Below are positions 20,561-64,000 of a stretch of 64,000 nt of DNA, piece after piece. Positions within the stretch are counted from its first letter, which is position 1. Every line of letters begins with the position of its first letter. Where the stretch lies: the NCBI GenBank assembly GCA_947366895.1, contig CANBBP010000003.1, positions 40,544-104,543 on the forward strand, read 5' to 3'. The notes beneath the pieces are model-generated. The model did no database searches. It worked only from the letters and a program-made list of their open reading frames with translations, and was not told where the DNA came from. The position numbers and the translations under genes are program-made. Source of the stretch: an uncultured Clostridia bacterium. GTDB taxonomy: Bacteria > Bacillota > Clostridia > Christensenellales > UBA1242.

Positions 20561-21739
20561 TTATCTTCTATAGTCAACCTTTATTTCTTCTTTGTGCTTT
20601 TTTTCCTGAACATCTTCTATTTTATTACAAATTACTGTAGTAAGTGGGGTAATAAGGGTAGTCATAAGAGAGTTTGTAATAATATAAATAGCAAAAATAG
20701 CACTTGATGAAATAGTAAATAAAAGCATAGTTATAGGCATAATAAACATCATAATTTTTGTAAAACCTGGTTGTTGAACTTTTAAAGTTTCTCCAGTTTT
20801 AGCTTTTGGGCGAGAAACCCATCTAATCACAAGTTGAGACAATAAACTAACTAAAACAACTATGATAGATAAAATATAATAGCCATTAGTTTGGTTTAAT
20901 TCCTTATTATTTAATAATTCCCCCATAACAAGATTATATTCGGCTTCAGAAACCCCTTCTTCGCCCGTAGAAACTTTAAAATCGTTATAACTTGCTATTT
21001 CACTAACAGTAGCCTTATCTGGTCGCCAAATACTTCTAATCCAAAGCCAACTATCTTTTATTTCTGAATAATGTTGAGCTACTAGTTTTTGGGCTTCTTC
21101 TTGACGAAGAGTTCTATCTTTTACAACAGTTTCCTGAGCAAGAGCTCTTTTTTCTTCCTCAGTTCCTGTTGTTAAGCCTGCAAAAATTTCATCTTCTTTT
21201 GCTTTTTCAGTTTCTTCTAACAATTTATTTTTTTCTTCAACAGTGGGTAAAGAGTTATATTCTTCTAGAATTCCTAAATCTGTACCTAAATAGTTTGTTT
21301 CATAGCTATTGTAATAAACCTGCTGTAATTCAAGATATTGATTTTTAATCTTAAAACCTGCTATTGATTGTAAAGATGACCACAAAGTTAAAAACACGGT
21401 TAATGTAACAGCCATATAAACTATCATAACAATGCAGGAACCTGACATTTTTACATTATTTTTTTTATATAACTCGTTTTGTTTTTGATAAAGTAGGGTT
21501 TGATTTTGCCCATATCTTTTTTTGAGTTTTTCAAGCTCTGGTTGTAGTTTTGCTTGAGCCCTTGTTTGCTTATTGGTAAAGTATCTTTGCATAAAATCAA
21601 CAGGACTTAACACCAATTTTAAAACAATAGTAAACAAAATAATGGTCCATGCATAACTACCAACATCAAAGAGTTTTATAATCGAAGCCCAAAAATTACC
21701 TTCTGGCCAAATAGAACCCAGTAAGTTTATAAAATCCAT
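20561..21739 (-). CDS. yidC: Membrane protein insertase YidC/SpoIIIJ
   Basis: IILFTIVLKLVLSP, LQPELEKLKKRY..Q-ELYKK, WLWI-SIW-PD; conserved context. Confidence 0.9.
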   Translation of the reverse strand: MDFINLLGSIWPEGNFWASIIKLFDVGSYAWTIILFTIVLKLVLSPVDFMQRYFTNKQTRAQAKLQPELEKLKKRYGQNQTLLYQKQNELYKKNNVKMSGSCIVMIVYMAVTLTVFLTLWSSLQSIAGFKIKNQYLELQQVYYNSYETNYLGTDLGILEEYNSLPTVEEKNKLLEETEKAKEDEIFAGLTTGTEEEKRALAQETVVKDRTLRQEEAQKLVAQHYSEIKDSWLWIRSIWRPDKATVSEIASYNDFKVSTGEEGVSEAEYNLVMGELLNNKELNQTNGYYILSIIVVLVSLLSQLVIRWVSRPKAKTGETLKVQQPGFTKIMMFIMPITMLLFTISSSAIFAIYIITNSLMTTLITPLTTVICNKIEDVQEKKHKEEIKVDYRR

Positions 21740-22020
21740 TTTATTTTCCCTTTAATATTTGGTTTAATAGGGTCCCAACCACCTTTTGTAAACGGAACAC
21801 ACCTACATAATCTTTTAACTCCTAAATAAAAACCTTTAAAAAATCCGTATTCTTTAAGAGCTTGCAAAAAATAAGTAGAGCAGGTGGGTGTAAATTTACA
21901 AACATGTGGTAAAAGTGGAGAAATACACCATTTATAAAAATATATAAATGCGTATAAAACCATTTTAAAAGGAAAGAGTATTATTTCTAAAAGGACTTTA
22001 ACAAAATCCCTAATTTTCAT
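21727..22020 (-). CDS. yidD: Membrane protein insertion efficiency factor
   Basis: ISPLLP-VCKFTPTCSTY...RC-PF-GGWDP. Confidence 0.95.
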   Translation of the reverse strand: MKIRDFVKVLLEIILFPFKMVLYAFIYFYKWCISPLLPHVCKFTPTCSTYFLQALKEYGFFKGFYLGVKRLCRCVPFTKGGWDPIKPNIKGKIKWIL

Positions 22021-22360
22021 TATTTAACTTTAATAAACCTGACTTTTTTAGAAGATATAAAAAGTTATTTGTAACTTCGTTTAAACCAAGTTCCTCACTA
22101 CCAGCCCTTGCTACAAAAACATAGTTATTAACTGGTAATAAATTTAAATTCTGCCTAATGGCTTCACTCATTAATCTTTTAATTCTATGCCTAGTAACAC
22201 TATTACCAACTTTGTTGCTAACAGTAAAACCTATTTGAGAAAATGGGTATTTGGTTTTTACAACATACATTGTAAAGAACTTACAAAAAAACGCATTGCC
22301 CTTTTTGTAGATATAATTAAACTCTTTCTTTTTTTTTAATCTATTTTTTTTATCCAACAT
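22010..22360 (-). CDS. rnpA: Ribonuclease P protein component
   Basis: RLKKKKEF, GFTVSNKVGNSVTRHRIKR. Confidence 0.95.
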   Translation of the reverse strand: MLDKKNRLKKKKEFNYIYKKGNAFFCKFFTMYVVKTKYPFSQIGFTVSNKVGNSVTRHRIKRLMSEAIRQNLNLLPVNNYVFVARAGSEELGLNEVTNNFLYLLKKSGLLKLNNEN

Positions 22361-22389
22361 AACAAAACATCTTTTATGTTAAATTTTTC

Positions 22390-22527
22390 TTATGCAGATA
22401 ATTTTTTTCTTCCACGATTTCTGCGTCTTTTTAAAACTTTTCTTCCATTTTTAGTAGCCATTCTTTTTCTAAATCCGTGTACTTTAGACCTACTTCTTTT
22501 GTTTGGTTGATATGTTCCCTTTTCCAT
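22390..22527 (-). CDS. rpmH: 50S ribosomal protein L34 (not in ORF track)
   Basis: Translates as [45 protein letters not shown]; SD AGGAGG. Confidence 0.98.
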
Positions 22528-22649
22528 AAAATCCTCCTGTAAAAATTATTAAGTAAATTTTTGTAGTATTAAATTTGCAAGCCTGTCTGAATTTTATGAA
22601 TTTAAGGTCGTTACCACAAGAAAGCTACCAATATTAAACTTGCTTATGC

Positions 22650-22678
22650 AGTTTAAAATATTTTTGCCGACTTGTCAA
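22650..22678 (-). promoter_or_regulatory. SigA promoter of the rpmH operon
   Basis: TTGACA-17 bp-TAAACT. Confidence 0.75.
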
Positions 22679-23082
22679 TCCGTTTTTTAAAAAAATGTTT
22701 GTGAAAGTTGCACTAAATATTTTATTAAAAATCACTTGCTTTTTTGTTTTTTATAGTTAAGCACTTTAAAAACCGACCAAGCAAAAGGTTATGAGAAAGG
22801 CTAAACTCCTTTATTTAAGCCACATGTAGCGGTTTAAGAAATAAAAAAAATATTTTATTGAACACCCAGACGGTAATTATAATTAATAAAATATATATAT
22901 TAATATTTATAATAATTAATAATAAATATTAATTTTTAGATTCGACTGAACCTTCAGTTATAAATATATTTATATATATAATATTTTAATTTTATAATAA
23001 TAAAAAAAATTTATTTAATTTATTATTTATAATTTTTATTTTTTATCGACTAAGCAGTAAGAATATTTTATTTTAAAAAAAG

Positions 23083-23114
23083 TTACCCACAATTGGTTAA
23101 GTTTTTGTTGATAA
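23083..23114. promoter_or_regulatory. Pair of oppositely oriented DnaA boxes
   Basis: TTACCCACA (23083-91, +) and TTATCAACA (23106-14, -), each one mismatch from TTATCCACA. Confidence 0.55.
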
Positions 23115-23211
23115 CTTTTTTATTTTTTAAAGAAGAAAAAAGAAGAAGATGAGTGTGTATAAATAATATATAACACAAATCAAACATTTACCACTGTTAG
23201 TGCCAAAAATA

Positions 23212-23250
23212 AAAAAAATTAACCACCTTTCAAAAGTAGCTAATTTTTTT
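23212..23250 (-). terminator. dnaN terminator
   Basis: Minus strand AATTAGCTACTTT-tg-AAAGGTGGTTAATT followed by T-tract. Confidence 0.75.
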
Positions 23251-23270
23251 ATTACAATTTAATTAAAAAT

Positions 23271-24374
23271 TTATTGGTTAATAATTCTTACTGGAAGAAT
23301 TAAATATAAATATTCATCATTATCGCTAGGAGTTATTATACATGGGCTAGAAGCTATGTTAAAACTAATTTTAATTGCTTCATCAGTGATAGTTCTAAGA
23401 CATTCTGTAAAATATCTTGAGTTAAAAGCAATTGTTAAATCGTTACCCTTTAGAGAAATACCAATATTTTCCTTTATGTTTCCTATATCGCTAGTAGAAC
23501 TTAAAGTTAAAACTTTTTCTTTAATGTCAAATTTTACAAGATTATTCCTATCAACTCTTGATAAAACTGATGTTCTTTCAATGGCTTCTTCAAAAACATT
23601 TTTGTTTATGATTAGTGAAGATGAAAAATCTTTTGGAATAATTTGTTTATAGTTAATAAAATCGCCTTCAATAAGCCTTGTTACAATTTTTGTATTATCA
23701 AATTCTACCATAAGGATATTTTTCTTAATAAAAATGTTTATAAGTTCTTCGCTATCCTCTAAAAATTTACAAATTTCAGTTAAACTTTTTGCAGGAACAA
23801 CAATACTTGTTTCTATTGTAGATTCAACAAGAGGTTTTTTAACAAAAGCAAGTCTATAACCATCTAAGCCAATTGAATTTATATTATTATTTGAAATTTC
23901 AAAACAGCAACCTTTCAAGATAGGTCTTGTATCATCAAGAGCAGTTGAAAAAATTGATTTATTTATAAGGGCCTTAAAATCTTTTTGTTTAATTGTGAAA
24001 TAATCACCATTTTCAATAATATTGAGATTTGGAAATTCTAAAACATCATAAACCTGAACAAAACTTTCACTATCAGTATATGTAATTTTTAATCTTTTGT
24101 CACAAAGTTCTAGTTCTATTTTTTCATTTGTTAGTTTTTTAATAAATTCAGAAAAGAATTTCCCAGGAATAACAACTTCGCCACCTTCTTTAACTTCAGC
24201 CTTAATTGTTTTTTCAATAGAAAGTTCTAAATCTGTTGCTGAAAGTTTTAGTCTATCTTCTTCTACAGTAAGTTTTATTCCTTCTAGTACAGGATTTGTA
24301 GTTTTATTTGATATTGCTTTTATTACCTGAGCTGTTGCAATACTGAGGTCCAAGCCATCACACACTACTCTCAT
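23271..24374 (-). CDS. dnaN: DNA polymerase III beta sliding clamp
   Basis: PVLEGI, ATDLELSI, TRPILKG, LDGYRLA, IAFNSRY, YLILPVR. Confidence 0.97.
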   Translation of the reverse strand: MRVVCDGLDLSIATAQVIKAISNKTTNPVLEGIKLTVEEDRLKLSATDLELSIEKTIKAEVKEGGEVVIPGKFFSEFIKKLTNEKIELELCDKRLKITYTDSESFVQVYDVLEFPNLNIIENGDYFTIKQKDFKALINKSIFSTALDDTRPILKGCCFEISNNNINSIGLDGYRLAFVKKPLVESTIETSIVVPAKSLTEICKFLEDSEELINIFIKKNILMVEFDNTKIVTRLIEGDFINYKQIIPKDFSSSLIINKNVFEEAIERTSVLSRVDRNNLVKFDIKEKVLTLSSTSDIGNIKENIGISLKGNDLTIAFNSRYFTECLRTITDEAIKISFNIASSPCIITPSDNDEYLYLILPVRIINQ

Positions 24375-24441
24375 TTATATTCTCCTTTTTTAAAATTATT
24401 ATTGTTATTATGCATCTTGATATGTGGATATCTTAGTAAAC

Positions 24442-24499
24442 ACGCAATATATTGTGTTTATATTAGTTTTTACATTACAAAAAATGCCATATTTTGTTG
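24442..24499. promoter_or_regulatory. Tandem NrdR-box-like pair 1
   Basis: ACGCAATATATTGTGT (15/16 to acaCwATATATwGtgt) and ATGCCATATTTTGTTG (10/16), starts 42 bp apart. Confidence 0.6.
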
Positions 24500-24801
24500 T
24501 GGATACAAGTTTTAACAAGCAAAAAATATTGTTGATAACTTTCATTTTTAAAACCACTCTTTTACTTTACCATATAAAATTAAATTAGTAAAGTATGTTT
24601 TTTTATTTTTAAATTAATTAATTTTATTACCAAAATTAATTTACTTTATATTAAAAAAATAAATAAATTAATTTTTTAATTAATACTAAATTATTACTTT
24701 ATTTATAATTTAATTTTAAATTAAAAAACTTACTAAAGTAAGTATTTTAATTATAAAATAGTAATATTATGCTTTGTAGAAATGTGCATAACTTTTTTTA
24801 A

Positions 24802-24858
24802 ATACTATATGTTGTGGTTTAAAGCAAAAAAAGATAAAAAAAGTAGTAAATATTGTGT
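24802..24858. promoter_or_regulatory. Tandem NrdR-box-like pair 2
   Basis: ATACTATATGTTGTGG (13/16) and GTAGTAAATATTGTGT (12/16), starts 41 bp apart. Confidence 0.55.
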
Positions 24859-24871
24859 GTAAAAAACACAT

Positions 24872-24901
24872 AAAAAAAGTGGAAAAGTAATTTTTCCACT
24901 T
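24872..24901 (-). terminator. Intrinsic terminator immediately after the dnaA stop
   Basis: Minus strand AAGTGGAAAA-attac-TTTTCCACTT followed by T-tract. Confidence 0.8.
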
Positions 24902-26246
24902 AATTATCGCTTTTAATCATGGCAATTAGGTCTTCAACATTAGTTTTTAATTGCCTATCACTCTTAATATTTTGTGCAATTTTATCTCTTGCGTGCATAA
25001 TTGTTGTATGGTCCCTGCCTCCAAAAGCATTTCCTATGGTCATTAATGGAACATCAAGAAGTTCTGTTATTAAATAAATACAAATTTGTCTAGGGTCAAC
25101 AATTTCTTTATTTTTCTTTTTGCCAATTAAATCGGCCTTTTTTACTTTGTAGTAGTTGCAAACAATGTCCATAATTTTATCAACTGTAATACTTTGTGCC
25201 TGAGAAGAGGTAATATCACTTAAAGCTTCCTCTGCTTCTAGCATTGTGGCATTATTTTTGCCAATAAGTATTGAAAGTGAAACAACTTTATTTAAATTTC
25301 CTTCAAGTTCTCTTATATTTGTGTCTATTTTTTCTGCTAAATATTCTAAAACTTCATTATCAACTGTATAATTTTCTATTTCCACCTTTTTTTGAAGAAT
25401 GGCAAGCCTTGTTTCAAAGTCAGGTTTTTGGATATCTTGAATTAAACCTCCTGCAAATCGTGATCTTAATCTTTCTTCAAGAGCTTCAATATTTCTTGGG
25501 TGTTTATCACTTGCTAGTATAATTTGTTTATTATTTTGATAAAGGTCATTGAAAGTGTGGAAAAATTCTTCTTGTGTACCTGTTTTATTTGAAATAAATT
25601 GAATATCATCAACCATTAAAACATCAACTTCACGATACCTTTGTCTAAAAGCTTCAATATTTTTTTCTTTTAATGCTTTTGTGAAGGCATTCATGAATTG
25701 CTCACATGTGACATATAAAAGTTTAATAGTTTTGTTATTTTTACGAATATAATTACCAATTGCGTGTAAAAGGTGAGTTTTTCCTAAACCAACACCACCA
25801 TAAATAAAAAGAGGATTAAAATTTTTACCAGGATTTTTTGCTACATTAATTGAAGCCGAATAAACAATTTGGTTACTTTTACCAACAACAAAGTTTTCAA
25901 AAGTATATTTTTCATTAAGTTTATTTTTTTCATTTAATACTTGTTCTGTTTCAATAAGTTCTTCCGCTTTATTAACATCATCTAAAAAACTATCTTTTTC
26001 AGTAGGGTCTAAAACAACAATATCTTCTACACTATCAAAATGGTTTTTTACTGTTGATAATAGTTTTTCTTTATGCAATTTTAAAAGTTGCTTTTTTGTG
26101 GTAGATGTGGAGGCTAGAAGAATCAATCTATTTTTTTCAACTTTTATAGGTTCTAAAGTTTCAATATAAAGGTCATAACTAACAGCAGTTACTAAATTTT
26201 CCATGTCCTTTAATACTTCGTTCCACTTTGTTAAAAAATTGTCCAT
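24900..26246 (-). CDS. dnaA: Chromosomal replication initiator DnaA
   Basis: YTFENFVVG, NPLFIYGGVGLGKTHL, DDIQF, RLRSRF, GGRDHTTIMHA. Start placed at MDNFL behind SD AAGGGG. Confidence 0.98.
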   Translation of the reverse strand: MDNFLTKWNEVLKDMENLVTAVSYDLYIETLEPIKVEKNRLILLASTSTTKKQLLKLHKEKLLSTVKNHFDSVEDIVVLDPTEKDSFLDDVNKAEELIETEQVLNEKNKLNEKYTFENFVVGKSNQIVYSASINVAKNPGKNFNPLFIYGGVGLGKTHLLHAIGNYIRKNNKTIKLLYVTCEQFMNAFTKALKEKNIEAFRQRYREVDVLMVDDIQFISNKTGTQEEFFHTFNDLYQNNKQIILASDKHPRNIEALEERLRSRFAGGLIQDIQKPDFETRLAILQKKVEIENYTVDNEVLEYLAEKIDTNIRELEGNLNKVVSLSILIGKNNATMLEAEEALSDITSSQAQSITVDKIMDIVCNYYKVKKADLIGKKKNKEIVDPRQICIYLITELLDVPLMTIGNAFGGRDHTTIMHARDKIAQNIKSDRQLKTNVEDLIAMIKSDN

Positions 26247-26401
26247 TTTATCCCCCTTATCAAAAAACAAGCATAAATTCTTGAAAAAAACCTTATTTTG
26301 TTTAACTTTTTATGGTTTTTTTTAAGTTTTAAAACATTAAAATTAAAAAACTATAAAATTTAACTTTGGTTGATTTTAAATTTTTTCTATTAATATAATA
26401 A

Positions 26402-26430
26402 ATAATACTATAATATATATAACTTGTCAA
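26402..26430 (-). promoter_or_regulatory. SigA promoter of dnaA
   Basis: TTGACA-17 bp-TATTAT. Confidence 0.7.
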
Positions 26431-27004
26431 GGTGTTAAGAATTATAAAAACACTAAAAAATAGTTATAAAATAATAATTATTTTAGTTAAAAATTTTTAA
26501 AATATTACCTTATAAAAAATAAAAAAAATAAAATGGCAAGCAAATAATAAAAAAAATATTGTGCAAATTTTACAAATCTTAAATTGATTTTTTACTTTAC
26601 ATTTAATATTTTTTGTGAATTTTTTATTAAATTTTTTTTTCTAATTGCTTATTTTAAATACAAATTAGTTATGTTTTTGTTACTTTTTTATTAAATATTT
26701 GGTTAAAAACAATGTTAATTTTAAATATACAATCAAACGAATAATAAAATATTTTTTAACCCTTATTATTTTTTTAGTTGTAATTGTAAAAAAAACTGGC
26801 TATTTTTAATGCTTTTTTAACTTAAATTCATATTAAAAATCACTTTATAAATATGACTATATATTTATTATATATATATAAGTATATATATCATTATATA
26901 TATAGGGGTTTTAAAGTTTAAAAAACAAGTTAATATTTTCATTAATTTTAATAAAATTTTAAAATACTATTTTAAAAAAAAGCCATATATGGTATATTTA
27001 TAAT

Positions 27005-28099
27005 ATGTATATTGAAACGGTAAAACTTGAAAATTTTAGAAACTATAGTTGTTGCGAAGTAAAATTAAAACCTCATCTTAATGTATTTAGAGGTTCTAAT
27101 GCACAAGGTAAAACAAATTTCTTAGAAAGTATTTATTTATCTAGTATAGGAAAGTCCCCAAAAACCACCAAGGAAAAAGAACTTATTTTATGGGGAAAAG
27201 ATAGAGCCAAAATTAGTATAAAAATAAAAAAACAATACCATGAACAAACGATAGAAACAATTCTTAACACAAATATTAATAAATCCATTAAAATTAATGG
27301 TTTAAATATAAGAAAAATAGGCGACTTAATAGGAGAAATGCCTATTGTATATTTTTCACCTGAGGAAATAGGTTTAATTAAGGAAGGACCTGCAGATAGA
27401 CGTAGGTTTATGGATATAGATATTAGCCAAATTAACAAAAGTTATTTCTATCTATTATGTAGATATGAAAAAGTTTTATCCCAAAGAAATAAACTGCTTA
27501 AAGAAAGCAAAAATTTTGATATTTTAAAGGAAACGATAGACCTCTGGGATGAGCAACTAGCTGATATTGCAAGTAAAATTATCTATTATAGGCTTGAGTT
27601 TATTGAGAAGATAAAAACACCTGCAAAAGAGGTACATCTCAATATAACCGCAAATAAAGAGGTTTTAGAGGTTGCCTATCAGGGAATAAGGCTAAAAAAC
27701 CAAAAAGAGATATATGAAAAACTGCTATCTTACTATAGAAGTTCTTTGCGTAAAGATTTTGATTTTGGATACACCACAATAGGCCCTCATAGAGATGATA
27801 TCGAGATAACTATTAATGGTATAGATGTTAGAAATTTTGGTTCACAGGGACAGCAAAGGCTGGCTACTTTATCGCTTAAAGTAGCGGAGCTTGTTTTGTT
27901 TGAGAAAGTGTTGGGAGAAAAACCTATTCTATTACTTGATGATGTGTTAAGTGAACTAGATGTAAAAAGATGTAAAAACTTTTTAAATGAAATTAAGGAT
28001 TATCAAACAATTTTAACCACAACTAAATTTTCAAGAAACTTAGATGAGGAAAGTGCCATTTTTAATGTAAAAAATGCGATAATTGAAGAAAAAGTTTAA
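27005..28099 (+). CDS. recF: DNA replication/repair protein RecF
   Basis: NFRNY, GSNAQGKTN, GP-DRRRFMD, GPHRDD, GSQGQQR, LLLDDVLSELD. Confidence 0.97.
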   Translation: MYIETVKLENFRNYSCCEVKLKPHLNVFRGSNAQGKTNFLESIYLSSIGKSPKTTKEKELILWGKDRAKISIKIKKQYHEQTIETILNTNINKSIKINGLNIRKIGDLIGEMPIVYFSPEEIGLIKEGPADRRRFMDIDISQINKSYFYLLCRYEKVLSQRNKLLKESKNFDILKETIDLWDEQLADIASKIIYYRLEFIEKIKTPAKEVHLNITANKEVLEVAYQGIRLKNQKEIYEKLLSYYRSSLRKDFDFGYTTIGPHRDDIEITINGIDVRNFGSQGQQRLATLSLKVAELVLFEKVLGEKPILLLDDVLSELDVKRCKNFLNEIKDYQTILTTTKFSRNLDEESAIFNVKNAIIEEKV

Positions 28100-28213
28100 A
28101 AAAGACTTTGTTTTTTTGTTCGTTATATGATATTATACATATATAATTATTATATTTATATATAATAAGCCTTTTTACCGTTAATTTTTTTGCGGTGAAT
28201 AAATTTTTTATAA

Positions 28214-30178
<1,965 letters not shown>

Positions 30179-62851: not shown

Positions 62852-62877
62852 TGGTGATCCCGACGGGATTCGAACCC
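62852..62877 (-). repeat. att core: duplicated tRNA 3' end (probably tRNA-Glu)
   Basis: Minus strand GGGTTCGAATCCCGTCGGGATCACCA = T-arm, acceptor strand and CCA; no 5' half present. Confidence 0.88.
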
Positions 62878-62979
62878 ATTTATAAAAACGCTACATACCG
62901 CTTAAATACTGAACTTTTTATAAAATTCTACTCAAATTCTACTCAATTTTTATTAATTTCCAATTTACCCCTATTGATT

Positions 62980-63128
62980 GACAAACCGCCTCTATTATGC
63001 TTACACGAAAGAAAAAGGAGGTGTTATCATTATGTTTATGTTCCAACTCACCCTTGTAACATTACAAATCATATTAACCATTTTACAAATAGTTAAAGAC
63101 CTTAAACAATAATGCTATCACTTCCTTA
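62980..63128 (-). ncRNA. Candidate cis-antisense antitoxin RNA (ends approximate)
   Basis: Convergent promoter TTGACA-17-TGcTATCTT (63162..63134) reading through the whole peptide ORF and SD. Confidence 0.5.
63032..63112 (+). CDS. Candidate type I toxin, 26-aa hydrophobic peptide
   Basis: SD AAGGAGGTG 8 nt upstream; MFMFQLTLVTLQIILTILQIVKDLKQ. Confidence 0.7.
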   Translation: MFMFQLTLVTLQIILTILQIVKDLKQ

Positions 63129-63211
63129 ACAAGAAGATAGCATAACATAGACAATTTGTCAATCAACCACCTGAACCAGCCCCTAGCCAATGTATATTTT
63201 TATAAAAAATA

Positions 63212-63237
63212 AAGGCAGTTAATAACTGCCTTTTTTT
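63212..63237. terminator. Bidirectional terminator
   Basis: AAAGGCAGTT-aat-AACTGCCTTT followed by T-tract. Confidence 0.85.
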
Positions 63238-63403
63238 ATCTTAAGTAAACATTAAATGTAAGTTTATAATTCCAATCTATATCCTCAATATCTTCTAGTT
63301 TGCACTTCAAATATTTACAAGCATATTCTTTAATTACTTTAATAGAAAAATTACTTGCTTTTATTTTCAAATACTCTTGATAAGTTATTTTTACTTGTTT
63401 CAT
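63236..63403 (-). CDS. Small phage-like hypothetical protein (55 aa, not in ORF track)
   Basis: SD AGAGG; MKQVKITYQEYLKIKASNFSIKVIKEYACKYLKCKLEDIEDIDWNYKLTFNVYLR. Confidence 0.65.
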   Translation of the reverse strand: MKQVKITYQEYLKIKASNFSIKVIKEYACKYLKCKLEDIEDIDWNYKLTFNVYLR

Positions 63404-63427
63404 TTTTTAAATCCTCTAATATAAAAA

Positions 63428-63631
63428 CTATTTATTTTTTTTCTTGTAACAACTGCAGGTGCTACACATAACCCTATCACCCCGTTATAAAGTCCAACCA
63501 ATTGAACGAACTGCATTTCTGCGATTATATATTGTATGGTTAAGGGAATTATCAATTTGTTCAACACGACCACAATAATCACAAGTAATGCGATAAAATG
63601 TAACAATAATAGTATTCGTTTCTACTCCCAA
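63428..63631 (-). pseudogene. Phage zinc-ribbon protein with internal TAA
   Basis: SD AAGGAG, TTG start; ...ITCDYCG...SIGWTL*RGDRVMCSTC...; stop at 63485-87. Confidence 0.7.
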
Positions 63632-63644
63632 AATTCAACTCCTT

Positions 63645-63899
63645 TTATCTATTAAACATCACTCTAGGGAAATGACAATCAACTATTTTTAATTCAAATG
63701 CTAAATAATCCAATAAAATATCAAACTCAATATAATTATTAATTTTTACTTTTATAGTCTTTTTATTTCTAAGAAAAATTCTTAACTTTTGCTTTTTTTC
63801 ACTAACTTTAATAAAAACTATATCTTTTATAACAAACGCATAATTTCCAATAACAACACAATTACATTTTTTATTTTTTAATTCAATATTACTCAACAT
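63645..63899 (-). CDS. Small phage-like hypothetical protein
   Basis: SD AAGGAG, 84 aa, tightly packed with neighbours. Confidence 0.7.
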   Translation of the reverse strand: MLSNIELKNKKCNCVVIGNYAFVIKDIVFIKVSEKKQKLRIFLRNKKTIKVKINNYIEFDILLDYLAFELKIVDCHFPRVMFNR

Positions 63900-63999
63900 T
63901 AATCTCCTTATTTATAATTTTGTTATATTCTTTTTCATCCAGCCAAATGCTATATAATTTATCTTTTTCAACAAATCTAGCCACATTCAATAAATTACA
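63889..63999 (-). CDS. 3' end of a phage-like ORF entering from beyond the window
   Basis: Open frame ...CNLLNVARFVEKDKLYSIWLDEKEYNKIINKEINVE* overlapping the next start. Confidence 0.5.
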   Translation of the reverse strand, partial: CNLLNVARFVEKDKLYSIWLDEKEYNKIINKEINVE

Positions 64000-64000
64000 T

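Follow-up and report, generated by a model that had tools for sequence, protein, structure and literature searches.

We analyzed the spacer between the dnaA and dnaN genes (positions 24375-24899; 525 bp, 17% GC) in a 64,000-nucleotide stretch of the genome of an uncultured Clostridia bacterium of the order Christensenellales; this whole stretch is referred to below as the window. The spacer, which judging from its sequence is the chromosome origin, contains pairs of boxes of the type recognized by NrdR, the regulator of ribonucleotide reductase genes. Such pairs are conserved in the dnaA-dnaN spacers of related genomes, are separated by whole turns of the helix and stand in register with DnaA boxes, which suggests that the start of replication may be tied directly to precursor levels.

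NrdR-box modules in the dnaA-dnaN spacer

Two co-oriented modules are present in the spacer, each composed of a distal NrdR box, 25-26 bp, a proximal NrdR box, 10 bp, a DnaA box, 11-12 bp and DnaA-trio-like repeats. In the direction of the genes, the order is terminator, upstream module, AT-rich core, DnaA boxes 24538-24530 and 24506-24498, downstream module, ribosome-binding site and dnaN. The predicted features are listed below in this order (scores of NrdR boxes refer to the matrix described further on).

24900..26270, minus strand, dnaA (TIGR00362, 514 bits)
24877..24901, minus strand, terminator-like hairpin and T run directly 3' of dnaA (terminator scan)
24843..24858, no strand, upstream module, distal NrdR-like box ACACAATATTTACTAC as read on the gene strand (7.0 bits, below the training range)
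24802..24817, no strand, upstream module, proximal NrdR box CCACAACATATAGTAT (19.0 bits, the second best site of the genome)
24783..24791, minus strand, DnaA box TTATGCACA, 10 bp past the upstream proximal box (8/9 to the consensus)
24756..24770, minus strand, DnaA-trio-like triplets ATA ATA TTA CTA TTT, 12 bp past the DnaA box (in agreement with the search rule for basal unwinding systems)
24539..24755, no strand, AT-rich core (217 bp, 10% GC)
24530..24538, minus strand, DnaA box TTATCAACA; a weak NrdR-like 16-mer (24519-24534, 7.1 bits) overlaps it
24498..24506, minus strand, DnaA box GTATCCACA, sharing 2 bp with the downstream distal box (overlap also kept in relatives)
24484..24499, no strand, downstream module, distal NrdR-like box CAACAAAATATGGCAT, degenerate in this genome (4.4 bits)
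24442..24457, no strand, downstream module, proximal NrdR box ACACAATATATTGCGT (16.6 bits; 1 mismatch to the consensus)
24423..24431, minus strand, DnaA box ATATCCACA, 10 bp past the downstream proximal box
24391..24411, minus strand, DnaA-trio-like triplets ATA ATA ACA ATA ATA ATT TTA, 11 bp past the DnaA box and extending into the ribosome-binding site of dnaN
23271..24374, minus strand, dnaN (TIGR00663, 300 bits)

The original prediction, made from the sequence of the window, had placed two identical modules of one DnaA box and two NrdR-like boxes on either side of the AT-rich core. All of its coordinates and strings, including the 16-mers at 24442, 24484, 24802 and 24843, are present in the sequence. 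The DnaA-like 9-mers TGTGGATAT (24423-24431) and TGTGCATAA (24783-24791) each agree with the consensus at 8 of 9 positions, the two modules share a DnaA-to-NrdR offset of 19 bp and occur at a distance of 360 bp, and the start-to-start distances within the pairs, 42 and 41 bp, correspond to spacers of 26 and 25 bp. The modules proved alike in layout but not identical in sequence. Three features had not been described: the DnaA boxes at 24498-24506 and 24530-24538, the overlap between the distal box at 24484 and the DnaA box at 24498 (2 bp shared), and the DnaA-trio-like continuation of each module.

The genome (1.44 Mb, 97% complete, 27% GC) encodes NrdR, as the proposal presupposed (TIGR00244, 193.1 bits against a cut-off of 124.65). 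The protein is canonical, with zinc-ribbon cysteines and an ATP-cone that are invariant in 21 aligned sequences, and nrdR was found in all 24 relatives of the genus and in 39 of 41 genomes overall. There is a single nrdR and no paralogue, the only other ATP-cone matches being the two NrdD proteins. These are class III reductases (nrdD1 and nrdD2), both encoded on contig C2 and thus, as noted originally, outside the window, in which the origin is flanked by dnaA and dnaN; no class I or II ribonucleotide reductase was found in the genome.

The published NrdR box is a 16-bp palindrome, acaCwAtATaTwGtgt, found as pairs at whole-turn centre distances (PMC12051234). Textbook pairs at a distance of 32-33 bp are found in the nrdD promoters of the genus (nrdD1 in 17 relatives, nrdD2 in 5 genomes), where TTGACA and a −10 element 17 nt from it enclose the proximal box. 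A palindromic 16-bp matrix was built from 32 unique boxes of 22 such promoters; its training sites score from 8.1 to 23.0 bits (median 19.1), and 8.1 bits was used as the site threshold.

When scored with this matrix, as the original prediction had advised, the two proximal boxes are among the best sites of the genome. The scores are 16.6 (24442), 4.4 (24484), 19.0 (24802) and 7.0 bits (24843), with 1, 6, 3 and 4 mismatches to ACACWATATATWGTGT, respectively. Genome-wide, only two sites reach at least 19 bits, namely that of nrdD2 (21.9) and the origin box at 24802, and nine reach at least 16.6 bits, the origin box at 24442 being about the ninth best. Approximately 247 kb lie outside open reading frames (ORFs) of at least 80 codons, and two of the five sites of at least 16 bits in this DNA fall within the 525-bp spacer. 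Box 24802 is nearly identical to the distal boxes of the nrdD1 promoters of relatives.

The second box of each pair is weak, as had been noted at the outset, both scores being under the training range. The position of box 24843 carries boxes of 12.0, 15.5 and 8.4 bits in three relatives (L012, L021 and L022, respectively), and box 24484 aligns with CAACAAAATATTGTGN boxes of 9-15 bits; it is only from this position relative to stronger boxes in relatives that the two weak sites derive their support as putative NrdR boxes.

In this genome and in the two relatives closest to it, nrdD1 no longer has the NrdR boxes that are present in 17 other members of the genus, and its upstream region (C2:29036-29436) contains a 24-bp palindrome, ATCTTTGTGCATATGCACAAAGAT, in their place. 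The same three genomes own the second reductase, nrdD2, whose boxes are present. At L047-L063, one or two TTTGTGCAAnnnTnACAAA sites occur approximately 100-170 bp upstream of nrdD1, beyond the NrdR boxes; we take these to resemble sites of CRP/FNR-type regulators, possibly serving anaerobic activation.

The identification of the spacer as the predicted chromosome origin is based on its four co-oriented DnaA boxes, its 217-bp core and the minimum of the cumulative GC skew at the dnaA locus. DnaA boxes with at most one mismatch number 4 in the spacer against 29 in the window (7.6 versus 0.45 per kb), and the skew of the 174-kb contig reaches its minimum at about window position 25.4 kb (mean −0.08 to the left, +0.09 to the right). 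According to a published search rule, a basal unwinding system consists of a DnaA box, a spacer of at most 16 bp (peak 10-13 bp) and at least three NAN trios (PMC8287927). Both DnaA-box units of the spacer have this form, with 5 and 7 triplets located 12 and 11 bp past the boxes. The tandem DnaA-box pair that adjoins the trios in the commonest arrangement (57% of origins) is not seen at either unit: one box adjoins the trios and the second lies approximately 75 bp upstream. In the spacer alignment, relatives show CTA CTA TTA at the position of the downstream triplets, after a short GC-containing spacer, which we take to be the form of the B. subtilis trios.

The genes recF and gyrB lie on the plus strand, diverging from dnaA. 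The intervening dnaA-recF spacer (734 bp, 13% GC) was rejected as a candidate origin, as it contains no DnaA box. The gene order of positions 20561-30178 is unusual in that dnaA-dnaN is inverted relative to recF-gyrB; a yidC-family gene is located downstream of dnaN on the same strand, with two small ORFs in between. The hairpin at 24877..24901 is the sole terminator-like site within 24300-27100, and an Rfam scan of 24200-27100 gave nothing near the gathering score (best 23.9 bits against 52).

Conservation and helical phasing in relatives

The motif, the pair spacing and the DnaA-box offset, for which the original prediction had looked to related genomes, are all kept there. The sample consisted of the dnaA-dnaN spacers of 22 genomes of the genus, including this one (DnaA identity 69-100%); one further locus had no dnaN match, and 21 of the 22 spacers were aligned, L026 being omitted as a near-duplicate of L025. 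The background was provided by 200 dinucleotide shuffles of the spacers. In four genomes, the dnaA frame contains one or two in-frame TAA/TAG codons (L006 and L031, from relatives G011 and G030, and also G004 and G024), which may be an assembly error or have some other cause.

The 22 spacers contain 49 sites of at least 8.1 bits, against a mean of 1.5 in the shuffles, and 19 sites of at least 16 bits, against 0.04. Fifteen of the 22 spacers have a pair at 40-45 bp, compared with none of the 200 shuffles. All pair distances of up to 70 bp fall at 41 (two cases), 42 (seven), 43 (four), 44 (two), 45 (one) or 54 bp (one). The proximal box scores at least 8.1 bits in 17 spacers for the downstream module and in 12 for the upstream module.

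A strict two-box pattern (the eight best-conserved box positions, twice, with a gap of 14-40 bp) was searched in 28 genomes of the genus and matched at 38 places, compared with 2 for a backward control. The start-to-start distances were 31 (one), 32 (seven), 33 (24), 42 (three), 44 (two) and 46 bp (one), with none at 34-41 bp. All five pairs at 42-44 bp fall in dnaA-dnaN spacers, so that in this genus the reductase promoters use a three-turn spacing and the origin a four-turn spacing; the 46-bp pair lies within an ORF of 604 codons. For four NrdR proteins, binding was reported to be best at box spacers of 15-17 bp and to have another optimum at 24-27 bp, and the natural spacing in S. pneumoniae is 25-26 bp (PMC12051234). 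The origin spacers of 25-26 bp fall inside this second optimum.

The boxes are also phased to DnaA boxes. From a strong box (at least 13 bits) to the next co-oriented DnaA box, the start-to-start distance is 25 (six cases), 26 (nine), 36 (two) or 37 bp (two); two further offsets of 36 bp involve a DnaA box with two mismatches. The 25/26 and 36/37 classes differ by one helical turn and correspond, in the spacer alignment, to a 10-12-bp insertion in one subclade. In nine cases a DnaA box is located at −49/−50, overlapping the distal box, while other DnaA-box offsets within 60 bp are singletons, with one doublet. Judged by these distances, all elements are in helical register: DnaA box, about one turn, distal box, four turns, proximal box, two to three turns, DnaA box.

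The unit of NrdR box and DnaA box upstream of dnaN also occurs in relatives at 51-62% DnaN identity (L087 and L091), and was found in none of 16 loci at 49% identity or less. An order-wide pattern (box core, gap of 5-30 bp, TTATNCACA) gave 57 matches in 55 of 401 genomes of the order, against 9 for the backward control; the gap was 11-14 bp in 40 of these matches and 22-23 bp in 6. This composite is present in 18 of 18 genomes of one genus of family f4 and in 10 of 20 of family f27. Thirteen of the 20 places that were fetched adjoin dnaA or dnaN, eight of them bordering a DnaA-box cluster upstream of dnaA and five being located upstream of dnaN. The remaining seven comprise two origin-like units without a dnaA or dnaN match, one reductase promoter, two sites inside ORFs and two unclear cases. 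The composite beside dnaA or dnaN recurs in several families of Christensenellales. In a wider sample of Clostridia (251 genomes), there were 19 matches against 16 in the control, i.e. no enrichment outside the order.

Possible roles of the boxes

The reading that we favor, at about even odds, is that these sites are genuine NrdR operators that modulate the action of DnaA at the origin, possibly along with transcription of dnaN. None of the outcomes by which sequence analysis could have overturned the original prediction was obtained. NrdR occupancy, and its effect on DnaA or on transcription, are what we infer here from site identity, conservation, spacing and phasing. The NrdR tetramer is reported to bind a box pair only with dATP plus ATP and to kink the DNA by approximately 90 degrees at each box (PMC12051234). 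Bound to an origin pair, it would alter the occupancy of the flanking boxes by DnaA and the building of a filament on the trios, making origin opening a function of the dATP/ATP state; an effect on the dnaN promoter, necessarily located in this stretch as well, would also be probable. The licensing logic would be that the origin opens only when dATP is available, and that NrdR is released once replication drains the pool.

The overlap of a distal box with a DnaA box suggests competition. The kinks introduced by NrdR, together with a single trio-adjacent DnaA box whose neighbor lies approximately 75 bp away across the NrdR pair, suggest instead a fold that joins the two DnaA boxes. On balance, a positive role in which NrdR bends the DNA seems to us slightly more likely than simple occlusion.

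It is possible, though we think it rather unlikely, that the boxes are real NrdR operators acting on transcription only, repressing dnaN here and dnaA where the composite is upstream of that gene, with the adjacent DnaA boxes as ordinary autoregulatory sites; this would widen the NrdR regulon to replication genes and leave origin unwinding without a direct effect. Repression is the sole established activity of NrdR (PMC12051234, PMC4009431), dnaN requires its own promoter within the spacer given the terminator after dnaA, and 50-130 bp separate the end of the downstream module from the start codon of dnaN. The composite of families f4 and f27 is 200-320 bp upstream of dnaA, and a single NrdR box upstream of dnaA has been predicted in Shewanella (bioRxiv 10.1101/2025.03.28.645925). 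Against this, the origin boxes, unlike the nrdD boxes of the same genomes, are not overlain by a −35/−10 pair. A consensus promoter scan found no sigma-70-like pair before dnaN on the gene strand except one 9-of-12 match inside the AT-rich core, and the total of promoter-like sites (25) is not above that of shuffles (22.4).

Four observations make us prefer a role linked to DnaA over pure repression: (i) across families, the boxes keep a phased distance to a DnaA box and not to a promoter or start codon, (ii) the upstream module is approximately 400 bp from dnaN, or from any gene start, and precedes the AT-rich core that separates it from that gene, (iii) the −35/−10 overlap seen at nrdD is lacking, and (iv) the four-turn geometry is used only at the origin.

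Several points weigh against a DnaA-linked role. NrdR is known only as a transcriptional repressor, and the terminator after dnaA puts the dnaN promoter in the spacer, where the downstream module could be its operator. A single NrdR box is reportedly not bound, two being needed (PMC12051234), and the partner boxes here, at 7.0 and 4.4 bits, score below all training sites. Those training sites were picked using the published consensus. The relatives are kin, and the conservation counts overstate independence. Trio-like triplets are common by chance at 5-10% GC and are weak on their own. Five of the 22 spacers lack the downstream boxes yet keep the DnaA box, trios and ribosome-binding site, and the L011 spacer has no NrdR box at all; the NrdR boxes of the origin are therefore dispensable. 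A co-fold prediction of DnaA (27-row alignment) with NrdR (21-row alignment) gave a score of 0.00 against a mark of 0.32, which we count neither for nor against the proposal.

Pairs of NrdR boxes were also found in integrated elements. Eleven three-turn pairs of the genus lie outside nrdD and the origin; eight of these have the 3' end of a tRNA gene at a distance of 3-13 bp, and two are located at contig ends. In this genome, two such pairs are inside integrated elements bounded by direct repeats of a tRNA 3' end, and a further pair accompanies a third integrase gene:

window 62852-64000 (left end) to contig C3:115944, element of approximately 12.5 kb at tRNA-Glu, with a 28-bp direct repeat of the tRNA 3' end
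contig C3:26459-34074, element of approximately 7.6 kb at tRNA-Gly, just left of the window
contig C7:14938-16700, third integrase, beside tRNA-Arg

The order within the elements is integrase gene, two short direct repeats, NrdR-box pair and att core, and the host-side ends carry no box. At the far end of the tRNA-Glu element, a tyrosine integrase gene is followed by two copies of AAATTCTACTC and a pair of 17.1 and 11.8 bits, 34 bp apart, the second box of which ends 1 bp from the tRNA; its host-side end, in the window, has no box but a displaced tRNA terminator hairpin. The tRNA-Gly element contains an integrase gene, TTTGACTAAAC twice and a pair of 14.5 and 16.0 bits, 33 bp apart. At the tRNA-Arg locus, the boxes are 32 bp apart and lie between two copies of the 5' part of the tRNA.

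In relatives (L120, L121, L126, L133, L135, L136 and L137), three-turn pairs occur next to the genes for tRNA-Met, Leu, Trp, Val, Glu and Ser, at 3-13 bp from their 3' ends. A number of these pairs are beside an integrase gene and others beside unrelated genes (MntP, MFS transporter), and the latter may be decayed elements. Of ten neighboring genes tested in all, six were identified as integrases by Pfam.

It is a quite doubtful extension of these findings that NrdR of Christensenellales has been recruited as a nucleotide-gated DNA-bending factor, comparable with IHF in E. coli, which would license origin opening only when precursors are present, the boxes working jointly beside the trios, and would also shape the intasomes of tRNA-targeting elements. 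This idea is kept alive mainly by the pairs in att arms, a non-promoter context.

We regard as improbable an explanation in which the resemblance to NrdR sites is convergence, the palindromes serving another protein, or DnaA through shared CACA/TGTG ends, or forming a cruciform or hairpin. NrdR and DnaA boxes do share CCACA, at the left end of the former and the right end of the latter, distal boxes overlap DnaA boxes, and some high-scoring palindromes, e.g. at C1:360052, look like plain hairpins beside tRNA genes. Nevertheless, a matrix derived from nrdD promoters alone fits the origin boxes at its training median, the pairs keep the whole-turn spacing that NrdR requires, the boxes lack the TTAT half of a DnaA box, and the genome has one nrdR without a paralogue, its other ATP-cone matches being confined to the two NrdD proteins. 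The palindromes were rejected as DnaA sites in view of the missing TTAT half and of the occurrence of identical boxes between the −35 and −10 elements of nrdD promoters.

Still less credible is a reservoir that titrates NrdR near the origin, in the way that datA titrates DnaA, with the gene dosage after initiation buffering nrdD expression and the origin itself left unaffected. Two operators at the earliest-replicated locus and further pairs in non-promoter places would suit such a function, but titration needs neither a phased distance to DnaA boxes nor an overlap with them, and there are only two to four extra operators per genome. Chance matches, which a spacer of 17% GC, an AT-rich motif core and two weak boxes out of four might bring to mind, have a negligible probability and are already contradicted by the shuffles (0.04 strong sites against 19 observed, no pair against 15 of 22 spacers) and by the backward controls (only 2 matches in the genus and 9 in the order).

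Comparison with known systems

NrdR boxes, their pairing and the four-turn option are already established. The origin boxes share with the operators of reductase promoters (E. coli nrdAB, nrdHIEF and nrdDG; S. coelicolor nrdRJ; S. pneumoniae) the same palindrome, in pairs and at whole turns; their spacers of 25-26 bp equal the S. pneumoniae spacing and agree with the second binding optimum, and the nrdR gene is canonical. They differ in having no reductase gene nearby, in not overlapping −35/−10 elements, in being phased to DnaA boxes and trios, and in their four-turn spacing, as opposed to the three turns of the reductase promoters of the genus.

Single NrdR boxes have been predicted at dnaA in Shewanella and at topA in Pseudomonas (Rodionov and Gelfand 2005, cited in bioRxiv 10.1101/2025.03.28.645925 and PMC4409342). 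The 2025 preprint states that box pairs are found only at reductase operons, that most other matches are suspected to be false, and that topA is unchanged in an nrdR mutant (bioRxiv 10.1101/2025.03.28.645925). The Shewanella case likewise places an NrdR motif near a replication gene, dnaA, but these predictions concern single boxes, whereas the origin boxes described here are paired, kept across the genus and tied to DnaA boxes in several families. They are an exception to the stated confinement of pairs to reductase operons. The titles, abstracts and passages of the literature that we covered describe no NrdR boxes in an origin or att site; supplementary tables might list other non-reductase sites.

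The spacer resembles oriC of B. subtilis (DnaA boxes 6 and 7 and DnaA-trios) in its place between dnaA and dnaN and in the succession of DnaA box, 9-12 bp, CTA/ATA triplets and AT-rich DNA just before dnaN (PMC8287927). It differs from oriC of B. subtilis in having a single trio-adjacent DnaA box, with the next one approximately 75 bp upstream beyond the NrdR pair, and in that the unit occurs twice, with an NrdR operator putatively attached to each copy.

In oriC of E. coli and in attP of phage lambda, IHF sites place a sharp DNA bender between the sites of the initiator or integrase. NrdR pairs of the genus are similarly found in integrated elements, with the arm repeats on one side and the att core on the other; the difference is that NrdR is unrelated to IHF and its binding is switched by dATP/ATP. 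To our knowledge, no architectural role has been reported for NrdR; if it is true that NrdR bends DNA in this capacity, a repressor that occurs in most bacteria would have a new type of function.

How the start of replication is matched to precursor supply is an old open question. The known links consist of DnaA acting on reductase genes, or of indirect effects of the nucleotide pools. Here, the precursor sensor itself has conserved, paired and phased sites at the place where the initiator works. The system is simple to test, with two proteins, a 120-bp fragment and two nucleotides, and the phasing provides a rule for locating such sites (an NrdR box followed at 25/26 or 36/37 bp by a DnaA box). 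A parallel is the nrdAB promoter of E. coli, which is bound by both DnaA and NrdR (PMC12176259) and in which the two kinds of site lie side by side, as in the spacer. There, the initiator regulates a reductase gene; here, in contrast, the predicted sites would place the reductase regulator in the initiator's own working site.

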